Shown here in pieces: positions 1-44,200 of a stretch of 64,000 nucleotides of DNA. A program made the position numbers and the translations under genes. Within the stretch, counting starts at the first letter, position 1. The number at the start of each line of letters is the position of its first letter. Location of the stretch: positions 32,001-96,000 of the IMG/VR virus record IMGVR_UViG_3300032123_000052; one strand, 5' to 3'. The notes under the pieces are model-generated. The model was not told where the DNA came from and made no database searches. It saw only the letters and a program-made list of their open reading frames with translations. Source of the DNA: a virus. Taxonomy: Duplodnaviria > Caudoviricetes.

Positions 1-3000
1 ATTTCTTCGAGAGCGCCTGAGCTTGATGGATATACATGCGATCGCCATCGCCATGTTGAGATATTTGCCCCCGACCTTTCAGACGCTGATTACCTTGAGT
101 CAAATCAGAACCGGAAGCACAATAGTAAGTGGGGAGAGCTTTCTTATATTTCGAGTACAACAGATTTCCCTGTAAACCAACCTTATGAGATATATGGTGA
201 TCGTGGTGGAAGTGGAGTCGTCTTTAACACAGGAGCTGATTTCTGCTCTATTAAAGGGATTCAGATATCATCTTCAATCCAGGGAGTGTTGGTTGATGGT
301 GCTAAAAACGTCACTGTGGAAGATAACATTGTAAAAGATTGTAAAGGCAATGGCATCACAGTAACTGGTAAAGAGAAATCGAATGAGAATCTTCTGGCAA
401 AAAATATTATTTATAAGTGTGGCGGAAGTGGGATAGAAATTCAGCACGGCGCTGCATTTGAAACATATTACGAAACGAAGTTTGGGACGCCAGCCACTAA
501 TGGTTTTATAATTACATCAATGTTCGGTCATTCTCATATTTTTAAGAAATATACCGTAACAGTTATAGCCAGTTCTGTAGACAGAATAGATTGGTTTCCT
601 GGTCGTGTTGTTATCTATGCCGATTCTGGATCAAGTGTTGGTGATATTCTTGCGAGCGGGAATATATTTGGAACCCCGTGGGGGACAATTACTGCTGATG
701 GTGTTGGCGCGGTAGGCGCATTGTCTGAAATTAGAATGGAAGATGCTGTTACCCTGCTCGAGTATCATGAAACTGGCCTTGGAATTAGACACTACCTGTA
801 TAACAACACAATAACAAAATGTCAACGTGGCATTTATATAGAAACACTTGTTGAGCAGGATTGGATAACCAATGTTGCTGTGTTGAGAAACAATGATATA
901 TTAGAATGTGAGCTGGATAATTATTACTCAACCCATGTGTTCCCGATTACCATACTCGCTGAGAACAACTGGTCTGATGACCAGTCAATATTGAACTTTT
1001 ATGGATCAAATAATGTCGATACACTTGCTCCGCGTTTTTTAAACACATCGGCTGAAGATTATCGCGCCACTCTTTACGATCTTGAAAGAATGGAAGGTAT
1101 TAACCTTGCTTCTGATGAGAATTTCCAGATCGAATATGATAATGTCGGCACTGAATATTCCACATATCCCCAGTGGGCTATTGGGGCGAATACATGGAAG
1201 TTCAGAAAAAAGTCAATTAATTGCTCTGTTGGTATTGAAGCCGGAAACCTTGATGAGTTTCCAGCCGGCAGAACGATAACAATTGAAGATGGCATAGCTG
1301 AATTCAGCTCAAGTGATATTAGCGGCGGTATAGGCGTTGGCGATAAAATTCAGTATGATGATGGTGGTCCTACTTATTGTTATCTTGCTGAGAAAGGTAC
1401 GAGTCATAGATGGTGTGTTGTTGATGATAGCGGAAATCACATCACCAGCCTTACCACAAAAGATGTAACTGATATTAAACGAGTATCAAACAGTTTGGAG
1501 GATGCGTTTAATACAGATATTACCACTGAGTTTTCAGATATAAGCGATAAGGATATTGCAGCTGACTTGCTTGATTTATACGTGTGGGGTTATGATGATG
1601 ACATTGATGATGTCGATGAGGTTGTTATAGACTCATGGACAACTACTCCATTTTATAGAATATATGTGCAATCCCCGTGGGACACGCGGACTCAATGCAT
1701 GTCTCGGCAGATGCATACCGGTATATGGAATGGGTACCGTGTTGTATCAGACGATGAGCCGAACGGGTCTGGCGGAATAGTAATCAGCATTATTAACACA
1801 AACCACATAGTAATTCGTGGAATCAGCGTAGAACCTCCCCCGCTCGCTGGAATAGGAATTGGAACTGATTCTGGAAGAGATGGTGTTATAATTGAAAATA
1901 ATGTGGTCAGAAATGGTGATATCGGAATAAATGTGCTTGGGGCTCTTGGCTGTGGCAACAGGGTGTATGGGAACATCCTTTATGACCAGGCCACCACAAA
2001 CATATCTGTCAATGGTGGAAGCGCGATTAACAATACTGCAATAGGAGCATCAACAAACGGTATTATAGTTACAAGCGCCGTTGATGATAATATAAATAAT
2101 ATTTGTCAAGACCAAATCACATGTTTCGGTGGGTTGGCAACGCCACGAGTCTGTATCAGCAGCGACGGCTCTGCCGGAACTAACGATGAATGCATGTCAA
2201 ACGTCACACTTAATTTCGCTGATAAAGCTGGTAAAGATTTCCACCTCCATAGAAGCGACTGGCATGCACTGAATCGCGGAGTAAAGTTCAATTCAATTCT
2301 TCCATTCAGATATATGTCCAGCGCGTATGCTACGTACTCATTTTATCGAGATATTGATAATGAGCTGATCGAAGATGGTGGTTGGTCAATAGGCGCTGAC
2401 TCATTTATTGAAATGGAAACGGTTGATCTGTATTTCTCTGCTTCGCGGGATACAACTAATTTTAGAAAAGGAACAAGCCCGTATCTTGAAATTGCAGATG
2501 GTGTCATGACTTTTTCTGAGCCTCAAGATGGCGAGGCTATGGGGATTGGTGATAAAGTTGATTACGATATTGACAATAAAATTTGCTATCTGTATAGGAA
2601 GGCCTCTGATATTGTATGGGAGGTACGTGGCAAATTTGGAATTGTCCCGCCAAATACAAGTGGGCCAATCGATTTAAACGCAATTAATAGAGCGTTTACA
2701 ATTACAACATTTAATTTGTTTGACCAGACACATGCCGGTAGTATTCAACAATTTCTTGGTGACAGCAATAACCCGTTTGTCCATTTAAGAACATCACGAT
2801 ACTCTTTGAATATTGCTATGTATAAGCACTCTATCGAACAAGAAGCTATAACATTGCGATATTTTGATAGTTATGAAAACAATCGTATCAGGTTGTTTGC
2901 ACCGAGAGATATACGCAATGAGTGTAATATATCCCAGGCTCATAATGGAAATGCTACGACCACCAATGACCAAGTATGGGTACGGTCTCAAGCGCCACCC

Positions 3001-6000
3001 CACGCCATTGACATGTATATCGATTATGCTGAGATAGATGGTATCATAGTCTCCGGCGACGCGGCAAATAGCACTGATTCAATAAGGCTGTTAAAGGCCA
3101 ATAATTGTAAAATCGTTAATAATCTACTATGGGGCGGAGTAAACGGAATTGCTCCTGTTGATATGGGGCATGATGATTTTACCGGTGATCATTTTCTTGG
3201 TACTATAAGAACTGATATATGGGACACAGCTTTTTATAGCAATTGGGAATTGCGAAACGTTCCTGGTGTTGGGTATGTTGCAATACCAGCATGGTCTCAA
3301 ATTGGTGTTATAAGTGATTTGACATCAGGCGCTGATAAATCTGGTGATTTTGATTATGAATTCGGTATGGTATTGGGCTCTGATAATTCAGTTGGTCAGA
3401 AACTCAGATTTATCCTTGATGATGGCGCTATTAAAGCTGAGTGTAACTGGGAAGATGGAACCCTCGATTTTGGCGGATCTCAATTAAATTTTCCATGGCT
3501 ATTTAATCGCGAATATAAAATGCGTATGGTTCGCGGCGGCACTATAACATCTGATGGTCTTTATGTAGATGATGTTGGAGAAGATAGCACCACTTCTCTT
3601 TATTATCTTGATAATTTTAATGATGGTGATGGGCATGGTTCTGGAAAATGGGCTAAACATCCTGGAGCATACACATCATGGTCTGGGGATCATCATATAG
3701 AAGTAGAAGGTCCGAAAGCACATGGATTCAGCTATATCGATTTATGGGTTGCGTCGGAGCCACTTCCTGGCGGAACAAAAATGGTTGGAAAGAATTCCAA
3801 TAATATCATTGTAAATAATACAATTTGGGACAAAGAGGGTGGCGGTATTATTACCTCAGATACTGATATTATTTACAATAACACTGTTGACGATTGTGAT
3901 CTATATTGCTATCGCAACTCTGCTTCTGATTTACTGATAAATAATATTGGGCAACGTGGAACTTCTGGGGCTTTTTACAATGGCGACACTGCTGAATTTT
4001 GTGTAGCTGATGACACGTCATTGGTAGTGACTGATGAGAATAGAAATATTAATAGTTTAACTTTAACTTTTGTTGACAAAATAAGCCCTATTGCGAGGAG
4101 GAATTATCATTTGGCATTGGCGACCGACTACCTCGCAATATGGTCAGCAAAACATCTTATTGGAAACCCAGACTATCCGTTTAATATTGATGGTGGTGGT
4201 GTGCCGAGGCGTCGTAAATGGGATCGTGGTTCTCTGGAATATCAATCGAAAAAAGTTATTTACGCCATTGGGGATGCCTACGTCGATCATCAGACAAAGC
4301 CTGGTGTTGGCGGTCTTACTTACATTATTAATGAAATCAATGGTAAGAGTTATATAGATTTCTATGTTCCGCAAACAAAGCTGAGTATGGGTGTTGGAAG
4401 TCAAGTTGTTGATATTGGCAACTCGTTCCCAAATGGCTGCCTTATCATAGAAAAAATAACCGAGACAAAATGGATAGTTGTTGATTATGCCGGTAATAGT
4501 ATAGCTGATAGATCAGGTTCTGTTTTTAGCATCAATAGGATTTTCAGCACATTATATGAGGCACTTGACACTTCTGGAATTGTAAGTTCTACTTATCTTA
4601 ACTCATCATCTCTTTATGCCGTCGGTGTATATGTTGAGCTTGCCTGTTATAACGAAGGAATAGGCAGAATGGTTCAACAAGCGCTAAATATTGATTCAAT
4701 AGCGTGTGATAAACATCATAATTTGCGAATAAAAACACCATACGACACAGTGACGGAATGTAATATATCGCAGAGGCATGATGGGTTGTACGATGAAGGA
4801 TTTAGATTTGAGCCTGAAGTGTTTAATGGTAGTACGGCTTCTATGTATTTCTTCCAGATGCTGTATGTCGAAATAGAAGGCATACTTCTTAATGCAGATG
4901 ATACCATTAAGGATGGAATACACCTGTTTGACTGTCGCGATGCGTACGTTGGGTATAATGTAATAAAGGATTGTGGCGGAAATGGCATATTGCTTGAGCA
5001 GGCGACAAACCCTGAAGATATCATTTTTAATAATCTGGTTTACGATTGTGTCAGAGACGGAATTGTTATAAAGGCCAATTTTAATCCATGGTTTTCTATA
5101 TTAACTCGCGTCAACAATAATACTGTCGTAAACTGCAGAAGGGCGTTTTATCTTGAAAAAGCAGATAAGAGTTATTCTGATGGCTTGTCAGTAGAGTTGA
5201 GAAACAATATTGCCCAGGATTCAAGATATCAGGATTATGTGTCAACCTATGAGAACTATTTTGGCAGATTCGCATTGTACAATTGTATCAGTGGTGATTT
5301 CTCATCATGGCTATTTCCCGGAATAAATAATATAAGAAATCAATATGTCAGATTCATCGGCAGGCCAGACAATTTTAATCTTCATAAAATACAGGACGGT
5401 TTTGCTGTAGATGATGCTTTGGATTTAAGTACTGATTGGCTGTATTCATTTTTCGATGATATAGGTGGCCGCCTGCGTGATTCAGGCGATTATGATAGAG
5501 GGGCGTTTGAAGTGGTTGATGTGTTTGGGTCTGGCAATCTTATCACCGGACCTGTTGAGATAAGTGGTATAGGTTTTGAGGGTATTGATTATCCTCTACT
5601 TATAATACATCTTCGTGATACTGTTGATGATTATCTTCCACATATCGATCCAGTGTATCAGTTTATTAATATTGAAGGCGCCACTGTCGATACTGATATA
5701 AATGCGTTTCTTGCTTCATTACCTACCACCGACAATGTTATAATTTATGTACAGGGCGGAATTGTAAAACAGGGAACTTTTGAACTTCAGGACAGAAACC
5801 CACGCACTGTTACGATTAAAACATATCCACCTGAAGTTTATCTTGGGCCAGCTTCTCATATATATTTAGGACCAATAGTTGATGGCACCAGCGACCAGGC
5901 ATTGCTTACATATGACGGTATGAAAATTTATAGTGAATCGGCCGCTGCACAGGATTATTTACTTGATAACACTGCGGTTACTAAGGCTCTGAGATTTATA

Positions 6001-6102
6001 AATTCTATTATCCAAGTAAATAAAGATAGTGTGATTGATAATATTCCTGATGCAACTGTTAAGGTAACTAATTCACTAATTGCATATCGAAATGGCCCTT
6101 AA
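1..6102 (+). CDS. Giant virion surface/tail protein with right-handed beta-helix (pectin-lyase-like) repeats and repeated modules; 5' partial
   Basis: Frame is open from base 1 (no stop before the ORF-track start at 286). Many NN/GI beta-helix strands (ENNIVKDCKGNGI, YNVIKDCGGNGI, NNLVYDCVRDGI) and a recurring module ending P-x-D-T-x-x-x-C-N/M-x-S. Confidence 0.7.
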   Translation: MSSRAPELDGYTCDRHRHVEIFAPDLSDADYLESNQNRKHNSKWGELSYISSTTDFPVNQPYEIYGDRGGSGVVFNTGADFCSIKGIQISSSIQGVLVDGAKNVTVEDNIVKDCKGNGITVTGKEKSNENLLAKNIIYKCGGSGIEIQHGAAFETYYETKFGTPATNGFIITSMFGHSHIFKKYTVTVIASSVDRIDWFPGRVVIYADSGSSVGDILASGNIFGTPWGTITADGVGAVGALSEIRMEDAVTLLEYHETGLGIRHYLYNNTITKCQRGIYIETLVEQDWITNVAVLRNNDILECELDNYYSTHVFPITILAENNWSDDQSILNFYGSNNVDTLAPRFLNTSAEDYRATLYDLERMEGINLASDENFQIEYDNVGTEYSTYPQWAIGANTWKFRKKSINCSVGIEAGNLDEFPAGRTITIEDGIAEFSSSDISGGIGVGDKIQYDDGGPTYCYLAEKGTSHRWCVVDDSGNHITSLTTKDVTDIKRVSNSLEDAFNTDITTEFSDISDKDIAADLLDLYVWGYDDDIDDVDEVVIDSWTTTPFYRIYVQSPWDTRTQCMSRQMHTGIWNGYRVVSDDEPNGSGGIVISIINTNHIVIRGISVEPPPLAGIGIGTDSGRDGVIIENNVVRNGDIGINVLGALGCGNRVYGNILYDQATTNISVNGGSAINNTAIGASTNGIIVTSAVDDNINNICQDQITCFGGLATPRVCISSDGSAGTNDECMSNVTLNFADKAGKDFHLHRSDWHALNRGVKFNSILPFRYMSSAYATYSFYRDIDNELIEDGGWSIGADSFIEMETVDLYFSASRDTTNFRKGTSPYLEIADGVMTFSEPQDGEAMGIGDKVDYDIDNKICYLYRKASDIVWEVRGKFGIVPPNTSGPIDLNAINRAFTITTFNLFDQTHAGSIQQFLGDSNNPFVHLRTSRYSLNIAMYKHSIEQEAITLRYFDSYENNRIRLFAPRDIRNECNISQAHNGNATTTNDQVWVRSQAPPHAIDMYIDYAEIDGIIVSGDAANSTDSIRLLKANNCKIVNNLLWGGVNGIAPVDMGHDDFTGDHFLGTIRTDIWDTAFYSNWELRNVPGVGYVAIPAWSQIGVISDLTSGADKSGDFDYEFGMVLGSDNSVGQKLRFILDDGAIKAECNWEDGTLDFGGSQLNFPWLFNREYKMRMVRGGTITSDGLYVDDVGEDSTTSLYYLDNFNDGDGHGSGKWAKHPGAYTSWSGDHHIEVEGPKAHGFSYIDLWVASEPLPGGTKMVGKNSNNIIVNNTIWDKEGGGIITSDTDIIYNNTVDDCDLYCYRNSASDLLINNIGQRGTSGAFYNGDTAEFCVADDTSLVVTDENRNINSLTLTFVDKISPIARRNYHLALATDYLAIWSAKHLIGNPDYPFNIDGGGVPRRRKWDRGSLEYQSKKVIYAIGDAYVDHQTKPGVGGLTYIINEINGKSYIDFYVPQTKLSMGVGSQVVDIGNSFPNGCLIIEKITETKWIVVDYAGNSIADRSGSVFSINRIFSTLYEALDTSGIVSSTYLNSSSLYAVGVYVELACYNEGIGRMVQQALNIDSIACDKHHNLRIKTPYDTVTECNISQRHDGLYDEGFRFEPEVFNGSTASMYFFQMLYVEIEGILLNADDTIKDGIHLFDCRDAYVGYNVIKDCGGNGILLEQATNPEDIIFNNLVYDCVRDGIVIKANFNPWFSILTRVNNNTVVNCRRAFYLEKADKSYSDGLSVELRNNIAQDSRYQDYVSTYENYFGRFALYNCISGDFSSWLFPGINNIRNQYVRFIGRPDNFNLHKIQDGFAVDDALDLSTDWLYSFFDDIGGRLRDSGDYDRGAFEVVDVFGSGNLITGPVEISGIGFEGIDYPLLIIHLRDTVDDYLPHIDPVYQFINIEGATVDTDINAFLASLPTTDNVIIYVQGGIVKQGTFELQDRNPRTVTIKTYPPEVYLGPASHIYLGPIVDGTSDQALLTYDGMKIYSESAAAQDYLLDNTAVTKALRFINSIIQVNKDSVIDNIPDATVKVTNSLIAYRNGP

Positions 6103-7604: not shown

Positions 7605-10600
7605 ATGCTAAGACTTACAAACGCACAAAGATCAACGTATCACCATAAAACCATAACTGAGTTTTCCGATATTAGCCATTTAATAGCGACTGGTGTTGCA
7701 AAAGGTTACGCGTCCAATAAGTATTCGTGGGTTTCTGACTTTCTGTTTAAGCATGCTGGAAACACATCTATTAATCCTCACATAGGGTATGCAGCATTCT
7801 ACAGTGAGAGAGATATATTTCAGCAAGAATATGGAAATGTAGTTAGGCTTCAGGATGAATATCCATTTCTCAGTGAGTATGATTATTCTATATTTCCGAA
7901 ACACTATGGCGAACTTTCTACAAAACAATATTTTAAAGTTGGGCAGAAGTTCTCGGAATATGATATTATCCAGTATTTAAATTTTTCCAAGTTTTATCCA
8001 CTGACCACCGGGTCAACAGATCTTGAATATTCAAGAGGCAGGGTTAAATTTAATATTAATCATGGGCGGTATAGAAATCCTGCTTTTTATGCTCAGGGCT
8101 ATAAGTTGGATATGAGTGACAATGAAGAGGGCCAGGAGTATGAATATTTCGATAGATATTTGTGGACGAACCCAAAAGATATTGAGCCTGGCAATAGTGT
8201 GTACAAAGAGTATATAATCAATGAAACAGATTTTGACATAACTCTTCTTCCGGTATTTACTGATTACTACGGCGACAGTGATATACCTGCTATAATTGCT
8301 TTTAATCAAAATAACAATGATATAAAGAGATTGTTTGATTACAAACTATTGATTGATAATCCTGAATTTCATCATTTTCCTGTTGGCGCTAATAATTGGG
8401 TTGTTAATCAAAATAATATTAATGCTGGAAGTGGTAAATATTATCCATACGTAGGTTTTGTACAATGTTTTCTTGATGGTTGGAAGTTTATATCTCCGTA
8501 TTATGAGTACCAAAACCCATCATTGGTACCACCAGCCCAAGGATATATACAATTCTATCCTGAAATTACTCAGAATGGTGTGTTAGAGCCAGCTAAAGTA
8601 TTAATTAATTGGGGGAGATACTTACATGGCGGCGCTGCCATTCCAAGATCTGGTGTATGCGTTTTTAATTCAGGAATACATCTTGGAGAAGCTGATGACC
8701 AATCGAGAATTGTATACAACATTTGCAAACACATGACAATATGGGATAGTGCCTCAGAACGGTTTGTGCTATATAAAAAAGCTCCTAAATACCCTGGGCA
8801 CCTCACGGGCGAAGACGTTCTATTCGGCATAGATTTAGACACAGAACGCAACAGAAGAAATTCTGCAGTTATTATGACTGAACCATATTTTACCGTGAAG
8901 CCAATAGCAAACGGGCAAGCTGCGAAAATATCATTTGTTGATTATAAAAACACCCCGATAGAACATACCGATTTTGAAGACTTTGAAAACGACCCATCGA
9001 TGTATTTAAAAATTAAAGCGCCGCTCACATTTATTAAAGAGCTTGACCGACACCTGGCGCTTAATGAAGTTAACACTGACATAATTGATACATTGATTAT
9101 AAAAAATCCTCGACCAAATTATGAGATGTTTAATTCAGACGCGCTTTTTTATGACAATTTCGGCGATGACAACAAGACATTGCTGTATCGTCAGGAATTC
9201 TGCCTTGATGACCTTATTGAGGGAATGGTTGGAGCCGGGACACATAGAAAGTTTTTTATAACAGCGTTTGGCCCGCGGGCAAACAAGTACAGCGATGATG
9301 AAATGAAGGTGTCAGGAATGGGGTTTGTGTGCAAAACAATGGTTAATCAGGCTGGTGAGATTCAACTTGGACACGATGAATATCTACACGTTTATTGTAA
9401 TAACCACACTTTTACAAACGCACCACCAGCAGGTGACAGCGACCCGGACCACGCTATACCAAATATTGATATTGAAGTATTAACAGACACATCAATTGTC
9501 ACCCGGATACAGCAGCACGAAAAATTCAAACCAATGTTAAAACTTCCAGGGATAAATGGATATATAAAAATATTGGAAAGAAATTCACACTTTAAAATAA
9601 ATAGGGCACCAGATGGTGAATATGAAATTATATACAATGTTGAGTTTCCATTTTGCCCAGGCTCCACCTATGAACGCATCGTAATGAATTTTGGAATAGT
9701 TGAAGGTATTACTCCTGAAACTTCAGGGCAGCATATAAATCATGAATTCCTTCTTAGTCAGATATTTTATAAAGCTGATTATATAAACGCAGGCTCTTGG
9801 GAAGTAACAGAAGTTGGCCCAGATAAAAGATACGACCTAACCAACGAGAGGTATTCGCCATTTGGTGATGATTCGTTTACTCATCACGAATTGTTTCAAC
9901 AGATTAGCCCTACGCTTGATATATTCAATTGTATCAGTATACCGTGGGTTCATTATTATTATGACGAAATATTTACGTTTGAAGAATTTGATAAACCAAT
10001 TCTCCATAGCGAAACGATTCAATATCCTGCAAGACTTATCTGGGAGCCACTTGAATGGAATTTGCTAAGCCTTATTAAACCGCAAACCCTGGGATTTGAA
10101 AAGTATGGAACATATAATATAAATGTACTTCAAGACAGAAAGCTTTTTTCTATTGATAATGCCATTGAGTATTTCTCGAGCGATTTACAATTAATTGCGC
10201 TTGCTGATAACAGGCAGTGGCAGTTCGACAAAGATAAATACGCATCATTCATCGGCAGAGAAAATCCTGCATATGTCTGTGAGATGGATATCTCTACACT
10301 TTTTGAAGACTTTCAGACGTACCAAGTCAAAAATGGCGCAATACCTGATGTTAAAAGGTGGCTCTATGGATATTTTTCAGGATTTGCCCATATGATGGCA
10401 ACGACCTCAGATCCTGAAACGAGAAGTGAAACAACCGCCCCTGGGTCAGAGTTTATAACCACACAGGCCGCACAATCAAATATCGTTATTGAAATATGGG
10501 ACGCTGGTTCTGATATAGGCAATGGGAAGTCTGGAAATTGGAGACCGCTATCGTCGATATCGTCAGACACTGAAAAAATTGCTGGTGAATTGATCTTAGA

Positions 10601-11366
10601 TAATATGTTTATATATCTTGATGACGACCCCACTCCGAATGCACTGCATGTAAATGAATTTGAAGACATTTGGTCGTTTTACCTCGGCCATTATAATCCT
10701 GAACATTTTCCTGATTTTCCACCTGAGTGGCAACCTGGTGGTGAAAAATCTTTATTACTTGATGGTCAGTCAAACCTCGTTTTGTCTGATTCGTATGGAA
10801 TAAGGAATTATCATATTGTATATGCACAGTGGGAACCGGTTGACACTGTTCAGGCTTATAAAGTGTGGATACGATACGATGAAACCAAGGATGATTTGTT
10901 TGTTCTCAATAAAACTGTTATTGATATGGACAATCTTCCAAGTGAATTTGGGTACCTTGCAATACATAAGCCGGAGAAGTTCTTAAGTAAAAATGCGAAT
11001 TTTGTTTTAAATACAAATGCACCATCGCCGACAAATCTTAATGAATCTGTTGTTAAATATATTGACATTCGATCTCAAGAAGGTACCGGTGGAATCCCTG
11101 GTTTTGATCGGTATGTCGATAACGAAAATAAAATACGTTTCAGAATAAGAGTTCGCAGATACAAAGATTATCCAGTAAATTATATAGATGAGGACACCAG
11201 CGACACACAATACATTGGAGGCGATGTGGTAACTGGTGATGAGTGGATGAATTTCCCATGGGGAGACGGCGTAATATTTGATATTGCTTTTGATTGGGGC
11301 AAGGTTGCCACGCTCGAACGCTTAAGGAAATTTGGCCTTACTTATTTTAAATGTGCCTCTAGGTGA
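7605..11366 (+). CDS. Large hypothetical structural protein (tail/baseplate region)
   Basis: 1253-aa aromatic/acidic ORF starting 2 nt after the previous stop; no family recognised. Confidence 0.55.
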   Translation: MLRLTNAQRSTYHHKTITEFSDISHLIATGVAKGYASNKYSWVSDFLFKHAGNTSINPHIGYAAFYSERDIFQQEYGNVVRLQDEYPFLSEYDYSIFPKHYGELSTKQYFKVGQKFSEYDIIQYLNFSKFYPLTTGSTDLEYSRGRVKFNINHGRYRNPAFYAQGYKLDMSDNEEGQEYEYFDRYLWTNPKDIEPGNSVYKEYIINETDFDITLLPVFTDYYGDSDIPAIIAFNQNNNDIKRLFDYKLLIDNPEFHHFPVGANNWVVNQNNINAGSGKYYPYVGFVQCFLDGWKFISPYYEYQNPSLVPPAQGYIQFYPEITQNGVLEPAKVLINWGRYLHGGAAIPRSGVCVFNSGIHLGEADDQSRIVYNICKHMTIWDSASERFVLYKKAPKYPGHLTGEDVLFGIDLDTERNRRNSAVIMTEPYFTVKPIANGQAAKISFVDYKNTPIEHTDFEDFENDPSMYLKIKAPLTFIKELDRHLALNEVNTDIIDTLIIKNPRPNYEMFNSDALFYDNFGDDNKTLLYRQEFCLDDLIEGMVGAGTHRKFFITAFGPRANKYSDDEMKVSGMGFVCKTMVNQAGEIQLGHDEYLHVYCNNHTFTNAPPAGDSDPDHAIPNIDIEVLTDTSIVTRIQQHEKFKPMLKLPGINGYIKILERNSHFKINRAPDGEYEIIYNVEFPFCPGSTYERIVMNFGIVEGITPETSGQHINHEFLLSQIFYKADYINAGSWEVTEVGPDKRYDLTNERYSPFGDDSFTHHELFQQISPTLDIFNCISIPWVHYYYDEIFTFEEFDKPILHSETIQYPARLIWEPLEWNLLSLIKPQTLGFEKYGTYNINVLQDRKLFSIDNAIEYFSSDLQLIALADNRQWQFDKDKYASFIGRENPAYVCEMDISTLFEDFQTYQVKNGAIPDVKRWLYGYFSGFAHMMATTSDPETRSETTAPGSEFITTQAAQSNIVIEIWDAGSDIGNGKSGNWRPLSSISSDTEKIAGELILDNMFIYLDDDPTPNALHVNEFEDIWSFYLGHYNPEHFPDFPPEWQPGGEKSLLLDGQSNLVLSDSYGIRNYHIVYAQWEPVDTVQAYKVWIRYDETKDDLFVLNKTVIDMDNLPSEFGYLAIHKPEKFLSKNANFVLNTNAPSPTNLNESVVKYIDIRSQEGTGGIPGFDRYVDNENKIRFRIRVRRYKDYPVNYIDEDTSDTQYIGGDVVTGDEWMNFPWGDGVIFDIAFDWGKVATLERLRKFGLTYFKCASR

Positions 11367-18084: not shown

Positions 18085-18495
18085 TTATTTGTCAGTGTCA
18101 TCATATGGCACATATCCACCTTTTCCAAGCATATACTGCGAAAATTTATCTTCACTGTTAAAGTACATATGATAAGCAGTACGAATAACTGGAAGTCCAC
18201 CAATCCCTTTAAAAGCGAGTATTGTATTGGGATTCGCGAAATTAGGATTTATTATTATGAACAAGATTTTTCCTTTAACTCCTGTGTCAAAATTGATCCT
18301 GTTTGATGATTTGGTATCAATCACCACACGGCCTTTAAGGCCATCTTCTTTAACATCGTTACCGTTTGCATGATAAGCGCATTGAATAGTATCAATATCT
18401 TCCATATCAACTATGTCTTCACGCTCCTTATCATCAATATTCGAAAGTATCTTCAACATTGCTCCCATTAAATTATACATTCCTTTCCAAAACAA
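18085..18495 (-). CDS. Hypothetical protein downstream of the Ubl operon
   Basis: 136-aa ORF; start uncertain. Confidence 0.5.
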   Translation of the reverse strand: MFWKGMYNLMGAMLKILSNIDDKEREDIVDMEDIDTIQCAYHANGNDVKEDGLKGRVVIDTKSSNRINFDTGVKGKILFIIINPNFANPNTILAFKGIGGLPVIRTAYHMYFNSEDKFSQYMLGKGGYVPYDDTDK

Positions 18496-18556: not shown

Positions 18557-19033
18557 CTAATTGCCTTTTACCTTTTGTGAAAGAATGATCCTTACAACAC
18601 CAGCCCCGTCAGTTGGACGGCTGACACATTCAGTCGGCTCAACTTTACGGGTACCGATACGGTATTCATAAGCATGGCTACCATCAGCGTGAGTAAAAGG
18701 TGCTCTTTTATCATCACCAAGCTGATTGATAATTTCCTGAATTGTCATACCGGGGGTGGCGGGAAGTTTCTCAATTCCGCCACCGGCGCCCATTCGAATT
18801 AAATTAACTTCAAAAGGCTCTTCAGCATTACCTTTGGTTTTCGTCCCGACGAAAATGCTTTGGCCGTTATGTAGCAGGGTGTTCTTTTGTACTTCAACAC
18901 CATGTACAGTAATGGTGCTATTTTCAGGGAGACTTACATCGAGTGCATCAAGTAATCCCTGAACAGTTGGATCGTCGGAAATCTCAGCATCGAGAATTTC
19001 CTTCCCCATCTGAATGAGTTTTACACAAATCAT
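18557..19033 (-). CDS. Tandem ubiquitin-like (beta-grasp) protein, two domains
   Basis: Two roughly 70-85 aa units (VKLIQMG...TVQGLL...; VNLIRMG...TIQEII...) ending GTKTKGN and SQKVKGN; adjacent to E1 and JAB genes. Confidence 0.75.
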   Translation of the reverse strand: MICVKLIQMGKEILDAEISDDPTVQGLLDALDVSLPENSTITVHGVEVQKNTLLHNGQSIFVGTKTKGNAEEPFEVNLIRMGAGGGIEKLPATPGMTIQEIINQLGDDKRAPFTHADGSHAYEYRIGTRKVEPTECVSRPTDGAGVVRIILSQKVKGN

Positions 19034-19058
19034 TTTAAAAACCTTTCATGGAAATTAG

Positions 19059-19829
19059 TTATTGGGTTAAATGCTGCTGAATGAACTGGGGCTCTTTCCC
19101 ATTAAACATTCTATAATAAAATGATTCAGGGTAAAGGGAAAAGTGAACCTCATTCCATAATTCATCAGGCTGATCTGGTTTTGCTTTTTTGTCGTCAGCC
19201 CCATACTTTCTATTGAAATGCTGCACAACCCTTCCGCATGCCAAGCTGGCAAGATATGTAGTGGTCGTGATTATTGATGCACTTGCTCCACATGCGGATG
19301 CGCTTGCCTCCTCATCGCTATATAGCGTTTCTTTCCATGCTGAGGCTTGGTCTCCATCGTGAGGATTGAATGCGTAAACTCGACCTTCACGCAACCCCAT
19401 CCGTGTCTCGATTACCAAGTCTGTATTAAAACTGAATCTTAAACATTTTTCAAATATTTCTTTTCTTGATGCCATGGTATCGGTAAGAATGAAAACGTAA
19501 GTAGACTGGACGCTTTTTTGATCTGTCACCATCTCTTTATGCGTTTCAATCTCAAAATTACACTTACGCTTTATAATCTCATTAAGAGCCTCAACCTTAG
19601 ATTTACCAACCTGTGAAGGTTCATAAATCTGATTACACAAGTTGTGTTCTTCAATAACATCATCATCAAAAACTTTTATTATTCCCTGTTCATGCGCCGC
19701 ATTGCCCCAACCAAGCTGGGCAAGATACAACGCGACATGGCTTCCAGTAGCTCCGACCCCAATTATCGAAATACTTTTTTTTTTTATATCTTTTGGGTCC
19801 AACAACCCCAATTGTCTTAGATATTCCAT
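19059..19829 (-). CDS. ThiF/MoeB/E1-like adenylating enzyme
   Basis: YLRQ, IIGVGATGS (GxGxxG), DDDVIEEHNLCNQ, KVEAL, TDTMASR; candidate catalytic Cys in SACG. Confidence 0.9.
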   Translation of the reverse strand: MEYLRQLGLLDPKDIKKKSISIIGVGATGSHVALYLAQLGWGNAAHEQGIIKVFDDDVIEEHNLCNQIYEPSQVGKSKVEALNEIIKRKCNFEIETHKEMVTDQKSVQSTYVFILTDTMASRKEIFEKCLRFSFNTDLVIETRMGLREGRVYAFNPHDGDQASAWKETLYSDEEASASACGASASIITTTTYLASLACGRVVQHFNRKYGADDKKAKPDQPDELWNEVHFSLYPESFYYRMFNGKEPQFIQQHLTQ

Positions 19830-20773
19830 TATTCCACAAAGCCTCCTCCATAGAAATCATCGACCTCTTGATCAACTTCATCTAACAATGACGCAACTTC
19901 TTGTGCGTTGAGGCTAGGCTTATTAGTTACTTTGGATGTTTTGTTTGGAAGGAAATTAATCTGCTTTCCGTACTGCCTGAATTTTCCCTCTGTGTACCGA
20001 ACCCTATCCTTATAGTCAGTTGTTTTGTAGGCGGTATATTCTTTATTTTTAGGTATATTGGCTTTCTTCAGCTCTTTTACCTTTTTCTTTATTTGACCTA
20101 TCTCATCGTCGTTTGAGAATATTTTTGAAATTTCGACACTTTGGTCATAGGAATTTTCTTCAGTGCTTGCTTCTGCGAGCACCTCTCGAACTTCATTCAT
20201 TTTTTCAACTAATGAAGCCGCTGTGTTTTCGTCCTCAGCTTCCCATTTGATATTATCAAATCGAACCTGATTCTCATGGTCAAAAAATGATATACTTATT
20301 TCATCACCACTGCAAATGGCTCTGATCAAGTAAGCACCAGTAGAATTCATTCTTTCTATTGCCTGGTTTTCATCCTGTGACGACGGACTTGTCGCCCTCA
20401 CCCCTGGGTGTTTGTGTCCCCAAAATCTTATCCTCTGGATATCATCAAGCTTCTCCTTTTCGATAAGATATTCCATAATACTGTGTTCACCTTCTGGGGA
20501 TATTTCACACGTTCCACCATCGGCAGCGTCGTGTTTTGGGTAGAATACATCACGAATATAGAACTCGTATTCTCCTATTTCATCAACAACTGCGTAAAAC
20601 CCAACCTCGGTAGTGTGCTCATCCATTAGCACTCTAATCCATTTGAGAGCTGTTGCGCTGAACACTATTTTCGGAGGCTTTTTATTAGCAAGGGTAAGCA
20701 TTCTGTATGTTGTTTTCCGGTTATCCGGCTTGAAGTTCATATTATTACTGATTCTCCGCAGTCTGATGAGCAT
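19829..20773 (-). CDS. JAB/MPN+ (JAMM) metalloprotease, putative deubiquitinase-like
   Basis: EVGFY ... WGHKHPGVRATSPSSQD matches the JAMM signature E...HxH...SxxD. Confidence 0.85.
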   Translation of the reverse strand: MLIRLRRISNNMNFKPDNRKTTYRMLTLANKKPPKIVFSATALKWIRVLMDEHTTEVGFYAVVDEIGEYEFYIRDVFYPKHDAADGGTCEISPEGEHSIMEYLIEKEKLDDIQRIRFWGHKHPGVRATSPSSQDENQAIERMNSTGAYLIRAICSGDEISISFFDHENQVRFDNIKWEAEDENTAASLVEKMNEVREVLAEASTEENSYDQSVEISKIFSNDDEIGQIKKKVKELKKANIPKNKEYTAYKTTDYKDRVRYTEGKFRQYGKQINFLPNKTSKVTNKPSLNAQEVASLLDEVDQEVDDFYGGGFVE

Positions 20774-21776
20774 TATCTTCCTGAGCTTCAGGCCAGTATT
20801 TCATATGATAGCCCCATGAATCATCAGGATTTGGTGTTTTAATAAACCTGATTAACGACTCAACTACGTAAACAAGATCTCTTGCACTAAGAGCATCAAA
20901 TACTGCATTGAATGCCGTCCCAAAGCAAGTACCGCCATCAGCCTGAACATGGCCACATTCCCATACTGCGCCGTTGCTTGAGGCATGTCGATGGGTAAGA
21001 TTTCTTATTGATACTGCTTTTTTCTGGCCTGTAGGGTTCGGAGAAAATAATGCATCAATACGAACACCAAGCCGCATAATACCAATGTGTCTTTTATGGC
21101 CATCCAACCTATCGTCAGTCACAAGAGGAATGGTTATAAAGACAATTTCATCATTGGTGAAATATACCTCGTTGACAAGTTCATAATTTTCAACAATACC
21201 ATTGGCTTGTTCAACAAGATTGATAATATCAGGACTTGTTTCAGAGAATCGTTTAGTAGCATCTTCGATTCTCCTTTTTAGAGCTATTGCTTTATTGAAA
21301 TGAATATTAAAATCTTTTAGAGAGTCATCGAGCTGTTTAGCGATATTGACACTTTCTCCACCAACAGCTTGAGATATTGCGGCATATATCTGCTCTTCAT
21401 TAGCAATACGGCTTTCCTCGATTTGCGATGGGTCGACCATGCGCCGTTCTGTGTCAGCAGCCGCCTCTTCACAGGTATTTTCATCCGCTGGCACGTCCTC
21501 CTCTTCGACATTATCTTCTTCGACGGGTTGACCTTCCTGCTGGGCAGGTTCTGATACAACATCAATAATAACAGAGCTTCCTGTCGTATCGAAGCTGACA
21601 ACTCCGTCGTATGCGTTTGATAATATCTCACGAGCTTCTTCAAGTCGCGGCTCATCAATGATGAGTTGAATTGTGCCGTCCCCGCCGAGATCTATTGAGT
21701 TCATAATATTTAGCAGACCTTCCGGAATGCTATTTATATCATAACCCAATGTCGGTTTAATAAACAACGTAAGCAA
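20745..21776 (-). CDS. Prokaryotic E2/UBC-like protein with N-terminal coiled region (E2-a)
   Basis: C-terminal GHVQADGGTCFG resembles the UBC HPN..dG.iCl motif; ends ...YWPE like its paralog. Confidence 0.6.
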   Translation of the reverse strand: MLTLFIKPTLGYDINSIPEGLLNIMNSIDLGGDGTIQLIIDEPRLEEAREILSNAYDGVVSFDTTGSSVIIDVVSEPAQQEGQPVEEDNVEEEDVPADENTCEEAAADTERRMVDPSQIEESRIANEEQIYAAISQAVGGESVNIAKQLDDSLKDFNIHFNKAIALKRRIEDATKRFSETSPDIINLVEQANGIVENYELVNEVYFTNDEIVFITIPLVTDDRLDGHKRHIGIMRLGVRIDALFSPNPTGQKKAVSIRNLTHRHASSNGAVWECGHVQADGGTCFGTAFNAVFDALSARDLVYVVESLIRFIKTPNPDDSWGYHMKYWPEAQEDNAHQTAENQ

Positions 21777-21787
21777 TAAACCCTCCT

Positions 21788-23737
21788 CTAATTAATGTGA
21801 ATAGGTATCGCGTCTGCGAGTAATTCGTCGAATTTCTTTTCTGCCTCAGCTATCTGTTCAATTGCTTCATAAACAACATTGGCATTACGATTTATATTAG
21901 TTGCTATTTCCTCAGATACTTCAGGCCAGTGGTTTACTTTTTCCCCAGCGGCATCTGATGTATTTGCTGATTCAAGGAAAAGTATTATTTGATACACCAC
22001 TTCAAATAAGTCGCGTCTTTTGTACGCATCGGTCAATCCGACCGCAAGGTTCCCATGACAGAAAGTGCCATTGTTCCATACATGCGGAGCGTTCATAATC
22101 GAATCGCCTGCATTAATCTGGTGCTTAGTGTTATTGATTCTTACAGTTTTGCTTTGGTCGTAAGTGTTGCTATGCATTCCGATGATAATATGAAAAGTTC
22201 CTATATCATGCCAACGTTTAGTTCTTTCGTCCTGTGCGTATATATTATTCGTATATACATGGACAGAGCCATCTTTTATTGTGATAGCACTTATTTTGTC
22301 AATTGCTATGGTCTGGTCATAATTATCATTAGCCTTTTTTCGCTCATCTTTCATAAATTCACCTTCATTGAAATAAGCTATCTGGTCATGGAATCTTTGA
22401 AACATTTTTGCATGCTCCATAGCCTGATCAAGACATTCTTTATACTTCGTGTGGTGCTCGTCTTTTTTTTTCTTGATCTGATTGGTTATGGCTTTCGAAT
22501 TTTCCATTGCAAATTGAATATACTCTTCTTTATTATTTATAGCCTTTTTCTCCATATAGGCAATATCAATTTTAACAAGCTCATTATATGGCGTGGAATT
22601 TGAATGCCTTCTTGCAAATTCCTTATATGCAATTTTAAAGAACGTTTTGTTTTTTCCAGTTGAATATGGAACTAGAAAATAAACTACACATCGATCTTTG
22701 ACAGCCCATATCACATGTGTCACTGTGTCTTTATAGACACCATCATATTTGTATATTGGAGAGTTCTTACGCTCTTTCAGGATGTCTCTAATTCTACGCT
22801 CTTTATTTTCTTCGCTTGCCCTAGTCTCGCGACGTATGTCATTAATCGCTTTATTTTCATTTCTGGTACCGGCGATGGTATGTATTTCATCAATTTCACA
22901 ACCGAAACACAAAGCTTTCATACCTTCATTAATTAAGAACGTTATGGTCGGCATGCTATAAGTAAAGAACAGTACATCTTTCGATAAATCGGACATAATA
23001 TATTCAGCTTTTATCATGTCCAATACCATAGATGCATGTGATGCGCTATATAAACACACTATGCTTTTTTTGATGCTTTTAGCAATATCTGTTATTAAAT
23101 TAAATTGGGTTTCGGTGAGCTTAGAGCCAAACACAACCACCCTAACCCTCTCTTCATCAAAAGAAACGTCATGATCTGTACAAGGGCAGTCTTTTATGTT
23201 CGTGATATTATCAAGAATCTTTTTCATGCGAGTAATCCATTTTGGTATTTCTTTTGGTTTCTCCAGCTCAACCTCAACCATTTCTTCTTCGGGAACAGCC
23301 ACATCATTTGAAGCGCCAGAATACTCTTCTGTTGGCAGCTCTTCTTGTGACGTAGTATGGTGATTGTTAATTTCATCCTTAATATTATCAAGCGTAAAAC
23401 GCGATCCACTTGTTCCTACAGATACTACATTTAAATATAATTCTGATGCTTTTGCCTCTTCACCAGTAAGATCGTTTAGTAAATTATCATCAACCCAATA
23501 TCGATGCACTGCCAACCTCATACCATGAATATTTGAATTCATTATTAATGGCTGAAGCCTTGGGTCTTTATCAAGCTTGTCCCACAGATAATTTATTGTA
23601 TTAAACGCTGTATCAAAACCGTCCTTATCGACAGCGGCGGCTACAGCCCCATTTTCTAGTGCATATTTCATAAATTCAATATTAAGAATTTCGGCAAGCC
23701 ACATTTCGACAAACCCAAAGGTCTGGTCCATTTGCAT
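21788..23737 (-). CDS. Prokaryotic E2/UBC-like protein with long N-terminal and coiled-coil region (E2-b)
   Basis: C-terminal APHVWNNGTFCHGN...DLFEVVYQIILFLES..N..D..G..VNHWPE is homologous to the C-terminus of E2-a. Confidence 0.6.
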   Translation of the reverse strand: MQMDQTFGFVEMWLAEILNIEFMKYALENGAVAAAVDKDGFDTAFNTINYLWDKLDKDPRLQPLIMNSNIHGMRLAVHRYWVDDNLLNDLTGEEAKASELYLNVVSVGTSGSRFTLDNIKDEINNHHTTSQEELPTEEYSGASNDVAVPEEEMVEVELEKPKEIPKWITRMKKILDNITNIKDCPCTDHDVSFDEERVRVVVFGSKLTETQFNLITDIAKSIKKSIVCLYSASHASMVLDMIKAEYIMSDLSKDVLFFTYSMPTITFLINEGMKALCFGCEIDEIHTIAGTRNENKAINDIRRETRASEENKERRIRDILKERKNSPIYKYDGVYKDTVTHVIWAVKDRCVVYFLVPYSTGKNKTFFKIAYKEFARRHSNSTPYNELVKIDIAYMEKKAINNKEEYIQFAMENSKAITNQIKKKKDEHHTKYKECLDQAMEHAKMFQRFHDQIAYFNEGEFMKDERKKANDNYDQTIAIDKISAITIKDGSVHVYTNNIYAQDERTKRWHDIGTFHIIIGMHSNTYDQSKTVRINNTKHQINAGDSIMNAPHVWNNGTFCHGNLAVGLTDAYKRRDLFEVVYQIILFLESANTSDAAGEKVNHWPEVSEEIATNINRNANVVYEAIEQIAEAEKKFDELLADAIPIHIN

Positions 23738-41223: not shown

Positions 41224-44200
41224 TTGCCGTCGATGCCGACAAAAGAACAGAATGTTCTTCGCAGATTATCAGAGATGGAAGCTGATGCAAGAAATAACAC
41301 ATTGATGAACGTTACTGTGGCAGATACGGTAAAGACAATTCTTCATTCGGTTGAAGATGATGATATTAAATTGAGAGTGAATAAGGTATGGATCGATAAA
41401 AAATATGACAATTCCGATATCTCAGCCCAAAAATCAGTAAGAAACAAAGGCAGAATATGGGCAAATGATCTCAGAGCAGATCTTTCAATAATTGACAAAG
41501 CAACCGGCAAAGTGGTTGATAATGTCCCCAGTATTAAAGTTACTACTATTCCAAAAATCACAGACCGTGGAACCTATCTAATAAAAGGTAATGAATATCA
41601 GTTCACAAAACAATCTCGGCTAAAACCGGGAGTATATACCAAACAGCAAGCAAATGGTGAGATCAGCTCTTTTTTTAATGTTGACAAAACAATTGATTTT
41701 GACAGAGGGTTCAACAATAACTTTAAAATAAATTTCATTCCGGAGCGAAAAACTTTTACTATGGGATATGGTAGTAAGAATATCCCTCTTATAAATGCAC
41801 TCAAGGCCGTTGGTGTCACTAGGAATGAGCTTGTAGAACGATGGGGGGAACAGGTCTATGAGGCTAATGCTAAAGCGTATGATAAGCATGAGACCAGAGA
41901 TCAGAACAAATTATATGAGGCAATTTTCGGAAAGCAACCAGATACAGGGTTAAATCCGGAAAATATCAGAAAAGAAATTAAAGAAAGGCTTTTTGACACC
42001 GGGCTCGATTCTGAAACTACAAAAATTACCCTTGGCAAATCATATAAAAATGTAAATAAAGACGCCTTGCTCGATGCGTCAAAAAAGATTATAGATATCC
42101 ATGCTGGAAAGATAGAAGGTGATGATCGTGAAGCCCTTGTGTTCAAATCTTTCTTCGATGTGGAAGATCATATCAGGGAAAAGCTTGTAAAAAATAGTAA
42201 GAAGATTATAAACAACATAAAGTACAAACTTAAGAAAAATAAAACCATTAATAAATCAATCAGCTCACAAGTCTTTGACCCATTCGTTGTCGGCGTCCTC
42301 ACCAACAGCCAGCTTTCAAATCCACCAAACCAGACCAACCTCATGTCTATTATTGGTGAAAGTAATAAATATACTGTTATGGGGGAGGGTGGCATAGGAA
42401 CCTCAAATGCTATTACAAATGAAACGCGCCAGATTTCTAATAGCGAGGCCGGATATTTTGATCCGCTTCATACTCCAGAAGGCCCTGGGATAGGAATTGC
42501 TGTTCACAATACAATGGATGCTGTTAAGGTCGGAACTGATATTTATTCAAAATATCTCACCACTAATGGTGAGAAGATTTTGTTGAAGCCTACAGAAACA
42601 TGGGACAAGAATATAGCATTTCCTGATGAATATGATTTATCAAAGCAAAAACCGAAAGCAAAATCAAGAAAAGTAAAGGTAATTAGAAAAGGTAAGCTCG
42701 CCGAAATGGCAGCTTCAAAGGTTGATGCTATTATTTCAAGCCCAGTCGGACTATTTGACACTTCAGCTAATTCTATACCATTTCTTAATTCTATTCAAGG
42801 GAACCGTGGCCTTACCGCCTCCAAAATGCAGGAACAGGCACTTCCTTTAAAAGATCGGGAAAAACCCTTGTTTAACATTGTTGATGAGAAGGGTAATAGT
42901 ATAAATAAAATTCTTGCAGGATCAATGGCGTTGCCAAAATCTTCTGTTGATGGCGAGGTGACAAAGGTAACATCTGAAAATATAACTGTTACTGATAAAA
43001 ATGGAGAAAAGCATAGGACGCAACTTTATAATAATTTCTCTATGAATGCAGAAAGCTTTTTGCATAATACCCCAGTTGTAAAAGAGGGTGACTCTATTAA
43101 AAAAGGTGGCCTACTTGCTGATAATAATTTTACAAAAAATGGCCAAGTCGCAATTGGTGCGAATCTCAGGACTGCCTATTTGCCATACAAAGGATATAAC
43201 TACGAAGACTCGGCAATTATGTCGGAAAGCGGCGCTAAAAAACTCACATCTGAGCATATGTACGATTTCAAAACCAAGAGATCATCAAAGGGTGTTTTCT
43301 CAAGAGAAAAGTTCAAAGCGTATTATCCGGAAGAGTTGAGCGCAAAACAGGGTCGCAAACTCGATAAGGATGGCGTGGTTAAAATTGATCAAAAGGTCGA
43401 TCGTGATGATGTATTAATTGCTCATATGGAGCATAAACCACCGACGGCAGATGATATTGCGCTTGGGCGTCTTGACAAACAGCTTAAGAGGGACATGTCG
43501 AACAATGCTCTCAAATGGAATAAGGATGTTGTTGGCACCGTTATAAATGTCGAGAAATCGGGGAACAGCGTCGTCGTCAGTGTTAAAACAGATGAGCAGC
43601 TTAAAGTCGCTGATAAGATATCCGGGCTTCATGGCAACAAGCACATTATATCAAAGATAGTTCCAGATAGTGAAATGCCTTTCAACCCTGAGACTGGTAA
43701 GCATATAGAGCTTACCATGAATCCGATCGGTGTATCAAATAGGATTAACACCTCTCAACTTCTTGAAAATGCTGCTGGCAAAATTGCAGCGAAGACCGGT
43801 GAGCAATACAAGATTCACAATTTTTCAGGTGATGACAACTCTAAAAAAATGATGACTGATCTCAAAAAAGCAGGTCTGTCTGATAAAGACATTCTGGTTG
43901 ACCCGGAAACAGGAAAGCCGCTTCTGAACCCTGTTGCCAATGGTGTGTCAAATATACTCAAGCTGGAACATGTTGTAGACCATAAATTTTCTGCACGATA
44001 CAAAGAAGGGTATGATGCAAATGAGCAACCGGTCACCGGGGGCAAGACTGGTGGTAAGAATCTCGGCCGAATGGAAATGTCTGCAATGCTTGCTCGCGGC
44101 GCCAATGAGAATCTTCGTGAGATGTTTGAAATTAAGGGCCAAAAGAATGATGAATTCTGGAGAGCAATGGAGACAGGCCAGAGCTTGCCACCACCGAAAA

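Follow-up and report, generated by a model that had tools for sequence, protein, structure and literature searches.

A five-gene operon in the genome of a Caudoviricetes phage probably encodes a complete, phage-autonomous ubiquitin-like conjugation pathway. The window considered here is a stretch of 64,000 nucleotides, bases 32001-96000 of the IMG/VR virus record IMGVR_UViG_3300032123_000052 (208,085 bp; CheckV completeness 100%), and the operon occupies positions 18557-23737 on its minus strand. According to the listing of open reading frames (ORFs), its five co-oriented ORFs are tightly packed, abutting or overlapping one another; they encode two E2-like proteins, a JAMM/MPN+ metalloprotease (JAB), a minimal ThiF-type E1, and a two-domain ubiquitin-like protein (Ubl). 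The evidence comprises this gene set, the folds, conserved catalytic-type residues, precursor-like C-termini, strict synteny, and purifying selection. The features of the operon are listed below in the direction of transcription, with protein lengths in amino acids (aa).

21788-23737, minus strand: long E2-like protein, 649 aa; candidate catalytic Cys, C560
21896..22429, minus strand: UBC/E2-like domain of the long protein, spanning residues ~437-614 and containing H552-x4-G-x2-C560-x-G; by the 55-sequence alignment, of the same family as the modeled domain
20745-21776, minus strand: short E2-like protein, 343 aa, TTG start; candidate catalytic Cys, C284
20763..21296, minus strand: UBC/E2-like domain of the short protein, residues 161-338; the sequence modeled by AlphaFold2
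19829-20773, minus strand: JAMM/MPN+ metalloprotease, 314 aa; catalytic domain, residues ~20-185
19059-19829, minus strand: minimal E1, a ThiF-type adenylating enzyme, 256 aa, with one adenylation domain
18557-19033, minus strand: two-domain Ubl gene, 158 aa
18827..19033, minus strand: Ubl domain 1, residues 1-69; beta-grasp ending K-T-K-G-N
18557..18826, minus strand: Ubl domain 2, residues 70-158; beta-grasp whose last residues, K-V-K-G-N, precede the stop codon
18519-18497, minus strand: terminator-like hairpin from a consensus scan, 10-bp stem and T-run, directly after the Ubl stop codon

From these components we infer each chemical step, and the targets, of a pathway that would run as follows. 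The JAMM protease would trim the 158-aa precursor at two invariant K-G-N sites, most likely exposing Gly68 and Gly157, and may thereby release two different modifiers. The exposed C-terminus would be adenylated by the minimal E1, which like ThiF and MoeB is presumably homodimeric and in which Cys180 may carry the modifier as a thioester. The modifier would then move to one of the two E2-like proteins, onto its conserved Cys (C560 or C284). The large, unrelated N-terminal regions of these proteins would take the place of an E3 and select the targets, and the modifier would finally be ligated to target lysines. We think that the module serves the infection program of the phage itself, by modification of host or phage proteins, and is not an accessory defense island, since it is fixed in all relatives checked and is apparently transcribed with the replication genes.

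Components of the predicted pathway

The AlphaFold2 model of the Ubl (predicted local distance difference test score, pLDDT, 85.5) has two beta-grasp domains joined at residues 66-69. A Foldseek search with this model returned ISG15, linear di-ubiquitin, and FAT10 (best E-value 3e-8, probability 1.0), and polyubiquitins were retrieved from the AlphaFold database (AFDB). At the sequence level, similarity between the two domains was not detectable, and the Pfam matches of the protein to ThiS and Ub-Mut7C were all below threshold. The alignment with thirteen homologs demonstrates that K-G-N closes both domains and is invariant in all 14 sequences, which come from diverged contigs, and that variable extensions follow the final Asn in six of the 14. 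In the distant relative L021, the Ubl consists of two near-identical repeats, each with Q-V-K-G-N at its end; in another, L020, a longer multi-domain Ubl of 300 aa carries R-G-N and K-G-N followed by a 25-aa tail. Judged by sequence, the doubled K-G-N with variable tails is the signature of a polyubiquitin-style precursor that would need trimming. K-G-N is read as the trimming site by the precedent of the Bil system, where the JAB protein BilC cuts off the residue that caps the reactive Gly of BilA, ahead of E1/E2-dependent conjugation (PMC10557695). The invariant Asn admits two readings: either JAB requires Asn at P1', or the Asn itself is the activated residue.

With the single JAB sequence, no match to the JAB families of Pfam or to a PDB sequence was obtained. 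An exhaustive search yielded 993 representative relatives at E<=1e-3, and in the 71 sequences that were aligned the JAMM motif E56/H120/H122/S131/D134 (E..H-x-H..S-x-x-D) is invariant. A weak Prok-JAB match was obtained for eight of these 71 family members, and the family profile reaches BRCC36 at 0.0095. The ESM Atlas model of residues 20-185 has the MPN fold, with template modeling (TM) scores of 0.70-0.80 to the Prok-JAB, RPN11, BRCC36, CSN5, and JAB-ThiF fusion clusters. In the region encoded 3' of the MPN domain, JAB carries a conserved helical block with K-V-x-E-L-K-K-x-N-I-P (window 19829-20200; I228, L235, N239, and P241 conserved), beyond which lies a variable tail with an acidic end. 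The I-P element of this block is also present in the tail of the long E2-like protein.

The E1 is the only component whose own sequence has a Pfam match above the cut-off. It scores 78.1 bits (7e-22) against the Pfam ThiF family PF00899, whose cut-off is 28.1, and was found again in the whole-genome scan. Its nearest profiles in the PADLOC defense library are the E1 half of the CBASS Cap2 E1-E2 models (2e-14), and its matches in PHROGs are unnamed families only. A profile of 15 homologs matches the solved structures of PaaA, the active adenylation domain of UBA6, ThiF, UBA5, and MccB. The residues invariant in these 15 sequences are R5-Q6, G24/G26/G29 in the G-x-G-A-T-G-S loop, D55/D57, and D117; thus the nucleotide-binding Gly loop, the N-terminal Arg, and the Mg-binding Asp of the E1/ThiF-MoeB class are all conserved. 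The only invariant Cys, C180, is located in S-x-C-G after the crossover region, a position from which it may be the thioester site. Neither CxxC pairs nor a CxxC zinc site were found in the alignment. An additional feature is the G-W-G-x5-Q-G insertion at residues ~38-50 (window 19680-19720), between the nucleotide loop and the D-x-D motif, which the profile alignment pairs with an insertion, G-V-G-x-S-K-E-K-G, in the active adenylation domain of UBA6.

The long and the short E2-like proteins share only a C-terminal stretch of 90 aa (32% identity, 3e-11). We collected 46 homologs of the former and nine of the latter, none with a Pfam domain. Both proteins contain H-x4-G-x2-C-x-G (H552-G562 in the long protein and H276-G286 in the short one), and the motif is invariant in all these homologs and hence not a chance match. 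In the joint alignment of 55 sequences, across which the two paralogous families have only about 20% identity, the H, G, C, and G are accompanied by an invariant downstream N, D, G, and W-P. The conserved His precedes the Cys by eight residues, and the Cys is followed by His in most members of the long family (Leu or Ala in two) and by Phe or Tyr in the short family. We take P-H-V-x-x-x-G-x-[FI]-C, and the [AP]-N-[TP]-x-D (P-N-P-D-D-like) that comes after a later helix, to resemble the HPN..G-x-I-C-L and PNPxDP motifs of UBC domains.

The fold of the C-terminal domain was predicted with AlphaFold2 for the short protein (residues 161-338; pLDDT 85.3, predicted TM score 0.80). All 50 best Foldseek matches of this model in PDB are E2 enzymes, with weak E-values (best 7e-3, probability 0.96). 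In AFDB the best matches are uncharacterized relatives with the same C-terminal placement of the domain (1e-9), then a "UBC core domain-containing protein" (1e-6, TM 0.61) and RING-type-domain proteins. An independent all-against-all structural search put the UBC/RWD/UEV superfold on top (Z 7.0), and a second search (VIA) aligned 121 residues to E2-25K with Z 7.6 and a root mean square deviation of 3.2 A, covering the whole UBC core, although by the tool's own warning a Z below 8 can reflect a common arrangement; 328 chains had Z>=5 in this second search. In the model, H-x4-G-x2-C-x-G is situated just ahead of the first long helix. The C-terminal domain of both proteins is therefore likely to have the UBC/E2 fold.

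Outside this domain the two proteins differ. The long one is composed of an N-terminal region of about 430 aa, a helical linker, the UBC-like domain, and a conserved tail ..AIPIHI(N); its N-terminal 430 aa gave no usable match in the ESM Atlas, in the PDB profile search, or in a Pfam scan of each member. The N-terminal region of the short protein is acidic and variable and matched nothing, and the whole sequence retrieved unnamed viral clusters only. The operon has no E3, and the N-terminal regions are thus natural candidates for target selection. In nearly all 46 homologs of the long protein the UBC-like domain is followed by the tail ..[AS]-I-P-[IV]-[HNK]-I (window 21788-21830; P0166-P0210), which could be a docking peptide. 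Among the proteins of the window, neither E2-like protein, nor JAB, nor the Ubl has a match in PADLOC or PHROGs.

These results bear out a preliminary description of the region that was made from the sequence alone. Its five co-oriented genes closing at a terminator correspond to the minus-strand ORFs and to the hairpin that follows them. The two UBC-like proteins with HxxxxGxxCxG that it recognized have this motif invariant in 55 sequences and are predicted to possess the UBC fold, whose absence would have counted against that description. Likewise, its JAMM protease is confirmed by the invariant motif together with the MPN fold, its ThiF/E1 by the Pfam score above the cut-off, and its double beta-grasp protein by the AlphaFold2 fold and the ISG15 and di-ubiquitin matches.

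Genome context and conservation

The same five genes in the same order were observed in every related contig long enough to show them (about 19), including Logan and JGI contigs. The preliminary description had proposed a search of viral databases for the same synteny, and this order was indeed found in all 15 IMG/VR loci identified through JAB, where the identity of JAB falls to ~40%. It was also found in the loci identified through a neighboring gene for a 695-aa protein, wherever the flank suffices. The flanks are syntenic as well: the SNF2 helicase gene, the VRR-NUC-like gene, the cassette, and the gene for the 695-aa protein with its neighbors follow one another. Pairwise ratios of nonsynonymous to synonymous substitution rates (dN/dS) are 0.08-0.21 across all five genes, indicating purifying selection, and E1 is by far the most conserved. 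With an unchanged gene order in these relatives and purifying selection on each of its genes, the operon resembles a core module of the lineage and not a captured defense island.

Each component of the operon is present in a single copy in the 208,085-bp genome. The preceding gene ends 38 bases ahead of the first ORF of the operon, and this short gap means that the operon may be co-transcribed with the genes before it. The minus-strand block, which extends from ~18 kb to 41 kb of the window, includes the genes for an SNF2 helicase, a DNA polymerase/exonuclease, and a primase-helicase, all assigned by PHROGs, as well as an Rv2179c-like exonuclease assigned by Pfam and a VRR-NUC-like nuclease with weak matches. 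The placement of the operon in the early/middle block by the preliminary description fits this company of replication and nuclease genes. The five genes form the end of this leftward block and converge on a plus-strand block, which ends with the strongly conserved 695-aa protein that has no family match.

Two other ORFs of the window were noted. The 136-aa ORF at 18085-18495, past the terminator-like hairpin, is conserved in the closest relatives only, has no family match, and is probably outside the module. Two separate regions of the 2115-aa ORF at 41224-47571 have matches among the RNA polymerase beta-subunit PHROGs; by these matches, the ORF may encode a fused multisubunit-type phage RNA polymerase.

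In the 149-kb relative L002, a gene for an IS605 OrfB/Cas12f-like TnpB (9913-11079) is located between the cassette and the gene for the 695-aa protein; thus this junction tolerates insertions, while the cassette is intact. The cassette is also present on two contigs of metagenome-assembled genomes (L023 and L024) binned as Chitinophagales and Methanobacteriota, and the bins conflict on the domain of the host. Blastn with the region and tblastn with JAB detected no relative among the cultured phages of INPHARED. Three more distant JAB relatives are encoded next to an E1, an E2-like protein, or a Ubl with a K-G-N end, in gene orders that differ from this one, so that the module family seems to be wider than this phage lineage. 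On one such contig (L020, 39 kb) a distant JAB-E1-Ubl set at 54-6100 is situated a few genes from genes for Tad6 and a Tad2-like (anti-Thoeris) protein.

Alternative explanations

Several observations weigh against the proposed conjugation pathway. The phage is uncultured. No E3 was identified in the operon, and no target either. The structural scores of the E2-like domain are moderate, both the Foldseek E-value and the Z-scores in the range where a common arrangement may be responsible. In addition, the 55 E2-like sequences matched no UQ_con or Prok-E2 family of Pfam at E<=5, and their profile matched no PDB sequence. The reactive end of the Ubl is a single Gly with an invariant Asn and not G-G, which makes the activated residue uncertain. 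Finally, the profile alignments of the E1 to solved E1s end ahead of C180, whose catalytic role is deduced from its position.

A more specific form of the pathway would be a code with two modifiers and two E2s. There JAB would free two different Ubls by cutting the polyubiquitin-like precursor at both K-G-N sites, one minimal E1 would charge both, and each E2-like protein would be an E2/E3 hybrid with its own modifier and its own targets, the whole constituting an obligatory step of infection across a lineage of large phages. In this full form we regard the proposal as rather doubtful; if true, it would mean a virus-owned ubiquitin-like system and not a borrowed defense module.

The cascade may be real and yet serve as an accessory weapon, either for Bil-like defense and superinfection exclusion by tagging of rival virions, or for counter-defense by jamming of a host Ubl system. 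Such a role is suggested by the one distant relative whose JAB-E1-Ubl genes are near the Tad6 and Tad2-like anti-defense genes, and modification of rival phages had been entertained in the preliminary description. Accessory defense genes are usually variable, whereas the cassette occupies the same position and has the same gene order in every checked relative, including those found through another gene. Fixed synteny of this kind favors an integral role in infection over a weapon directed at rival phages; moreover, the PADLOC models match E1 only. We therefore consider the accessory role unlikely. That a Bil or CBASS system was captured from a host in recent times was also rejected, in view of profile matches to E1 only, a different architecture, and a fixed position across a diverged lineage.

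The second reading of the invariant Asn leads to another chemistry. If the C-terminal Asn were the activated residue, JAB would cut after it, and the E1 would act like MccB, by adenylation and succinimide chemistry, producing an unusual conjugation or a nucleotidylated protein end. MccB and PaaA are E1-like enzymes that act on Asn-containing peptides, and of the solved structures both are among the best matches to the E1 encoded here; these matches, however, cover only the shared Rossmann region, with scores equal to those of ThiF and UBA6. The 256-aa E1 has no room for the N-terminal peptide-clamp domain of MccB: its adenylation domain starts at residue ~1-7, whereas the MccB match begins at chain residue ~110. 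The conservation of the Asn also argues for this chemistry, since it is invariant at both sites in all homologs while the residues beyond it vary or are absent; by comparison, the caps past the reactive Gly of BilA homologs are overhangs of 2-9 aa of varying length (PMC10557695; 10.1101/2023.09.04.556158). Chemistry of the MccB type would nevertheless not call for two E2-like proteins with a conserved Cys. Some JAMM enzymes, Mec+ and QbsD among them, are known to take off the one or two residues that follow a Gly. BilC is a further example (PMC10557695). On balance, activation of the Asn appears decidedly unlikely.

It is highly improbable that the E2-like domains are non-catalytic scaffolds of the UBC/RWD/UEV type, with JAB, E1, and the Ubl working E2-free, as in archaeal SAMP/UbaA and Thermus TtuB/TtuC, or in sulfur transfer. 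In the fold search RWD domains do reach the scores of E2s (Z 7.0 for the Knl1 RWD), and a sequence-profile link to E2 families is lacking, but the Cys with its neighboring His and Gly is invariant in 55 sequences of two paralogous families that share ~20% identity, and both E2-like genes are always in the operon. Furthermore, no rhodanese, thiamine, or molybdopterin genes are nearby, and the tag does not end in G-G. A plain sulfur carrier of the ThiS/MoaD kind was rejected because of the two E2-like proteins with an invariant Cys, the JAB, the lack of sulfur-metabolism neighbors, and the lack of a G-G end.

Comparison with known systems

Eukaryotic viruses exploit ubiquitination. To our knowledge, the only role in which the bacterial E1/E2/Ubl/JAB systems (CBASS Cap2/Cap3, Bil, and Bub) have been characterized is that of a host weapon against phages. 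If a phage owns a complete and strongly conserved set, prokaryotic viruses too would be writers of ubiquitin-like marks. The operon offers a new and very diverged family of probable E2s, an E1 of minimal size that could be a tractable model, a natural polyubiquitin-like precursor with the unusual K-G-N end, and a case of two E2s without an E3. The minimal E1, the K-G-N precursor, and the E3-less E2 pair bear on the pre-eukaryotic evolution of E2/E3 specificity and of precursor processing.

Our literature search found no description of a complete phage-encoded Ubl/E1/E2/JAB cassette. The nearest report is of E1-like genes alone in the Nidhogg viruses of Asgard archaea (10.1101/2021.07.29.454249). 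The survey by Iyer, Burroughs, and Aravind of 2006 describes no complete phage-encoded set; the one pair that it mentions for phages is the tail-assembly Ubl/JAB of the lambda type (PMC1779556).

Of the eukaryotic proteins, polyubiquitin, ISG15, and FAT10 resemble the phage tag in being tandem beta-grasp proteins, with the C-terminal motif repeated as in a precursor, and when the predicted E2-like domain is superposed on the canonical E2s E2-25K, Ubc13, and UBE2S, their whole UBC core is covered. In contrast to the eukaryotic systems, there is no significant sequence similarity, the tag ends in K-G-N and not in G-G, the E2-like domain is without the last helices, the E1 is minimal, and no RING or HECT E3 is present.

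Among prokaryotic systems the closest is Bil, followed by CBASS Cap2/Cap3, Bub, and the operon type 6d of the 2006 survey. Operon type 6d (Ubl, JAB, E1-like protein, and E2-like protein, with a helical protein) has the same four functional classes in one operon, but it is bacterial, is carried on mobile elements, and the conserved His of its E2 is C-terminal to the Cys (PMC1779556). Bub (types I and II) likewise has a diverged E1/E2/Ubl set with multi-domain Ubls and pre-processing by a peptidase; it differs in its fused proteins, the DUF6527 serine protease, oxyester (Ser) intermediates, and an E1 without a catalytic Cys (PMC11601596, PMC11601603), whereas the phage operon encodes separate proteins with an invariant Cys in both E2-like proteins and in the E1. 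Type II CBASS also pairs a JAB with E1 and E2, and its E1-E2 models are the nearest to our E1 in the PADLOC library; however, E2 and E1 are fused there, and it is the C-terminus of the CD-NTase that is conjugated, without a separate Ubl. No nucleotidyltransferase or effector gene was recognized among the ORFs beside the phage operon, and neither JAB nor the E2-like proteins match a CBASS profile.

The likeness to Bil (BilABCD, types I and II), an ISG15-like anti-phage system, is the most extensive: Ubl, E2, JAB, and E1 are separate genes of one operon (PMC10557695, 10.1101/2023.09.04.556158), the Ubl often has two beta-grasp domains, and the JAB removes the residues after a reactive Gly. The differences are nonetheless considerable. 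The module described here is phage-encoded and fixed, and it includes a pair of E2-like genes, both of which encode large N-terminal extensions. The motif of its E2-like proteins is H-x4-G-x2-C-x-G, whereas BilB has a C/E/H/H motif (type II) with the conserved His C-terminal to the Cys. BilD contains an inactive and an active adenylation domain, a CYS insertion, and a four-Cys zinc site (PMC10557695), whereas the E1 encoded here is a 256-aa protein with a single domain. An invariant Asn follows the Gly at the ends of both Ubl domains, the internal site included. Thus the cassette works like Bil on paper, yet fails the defining E1 and E2 features of Bil. What sets the operon apart from Bil, Bub, and CBASS is the pair of E2-like proteins with large N-terminal regions of no known family, the lack of an E3, the minimal single-domain E1, and the invariant K-G-N at the ends of both tag domains.

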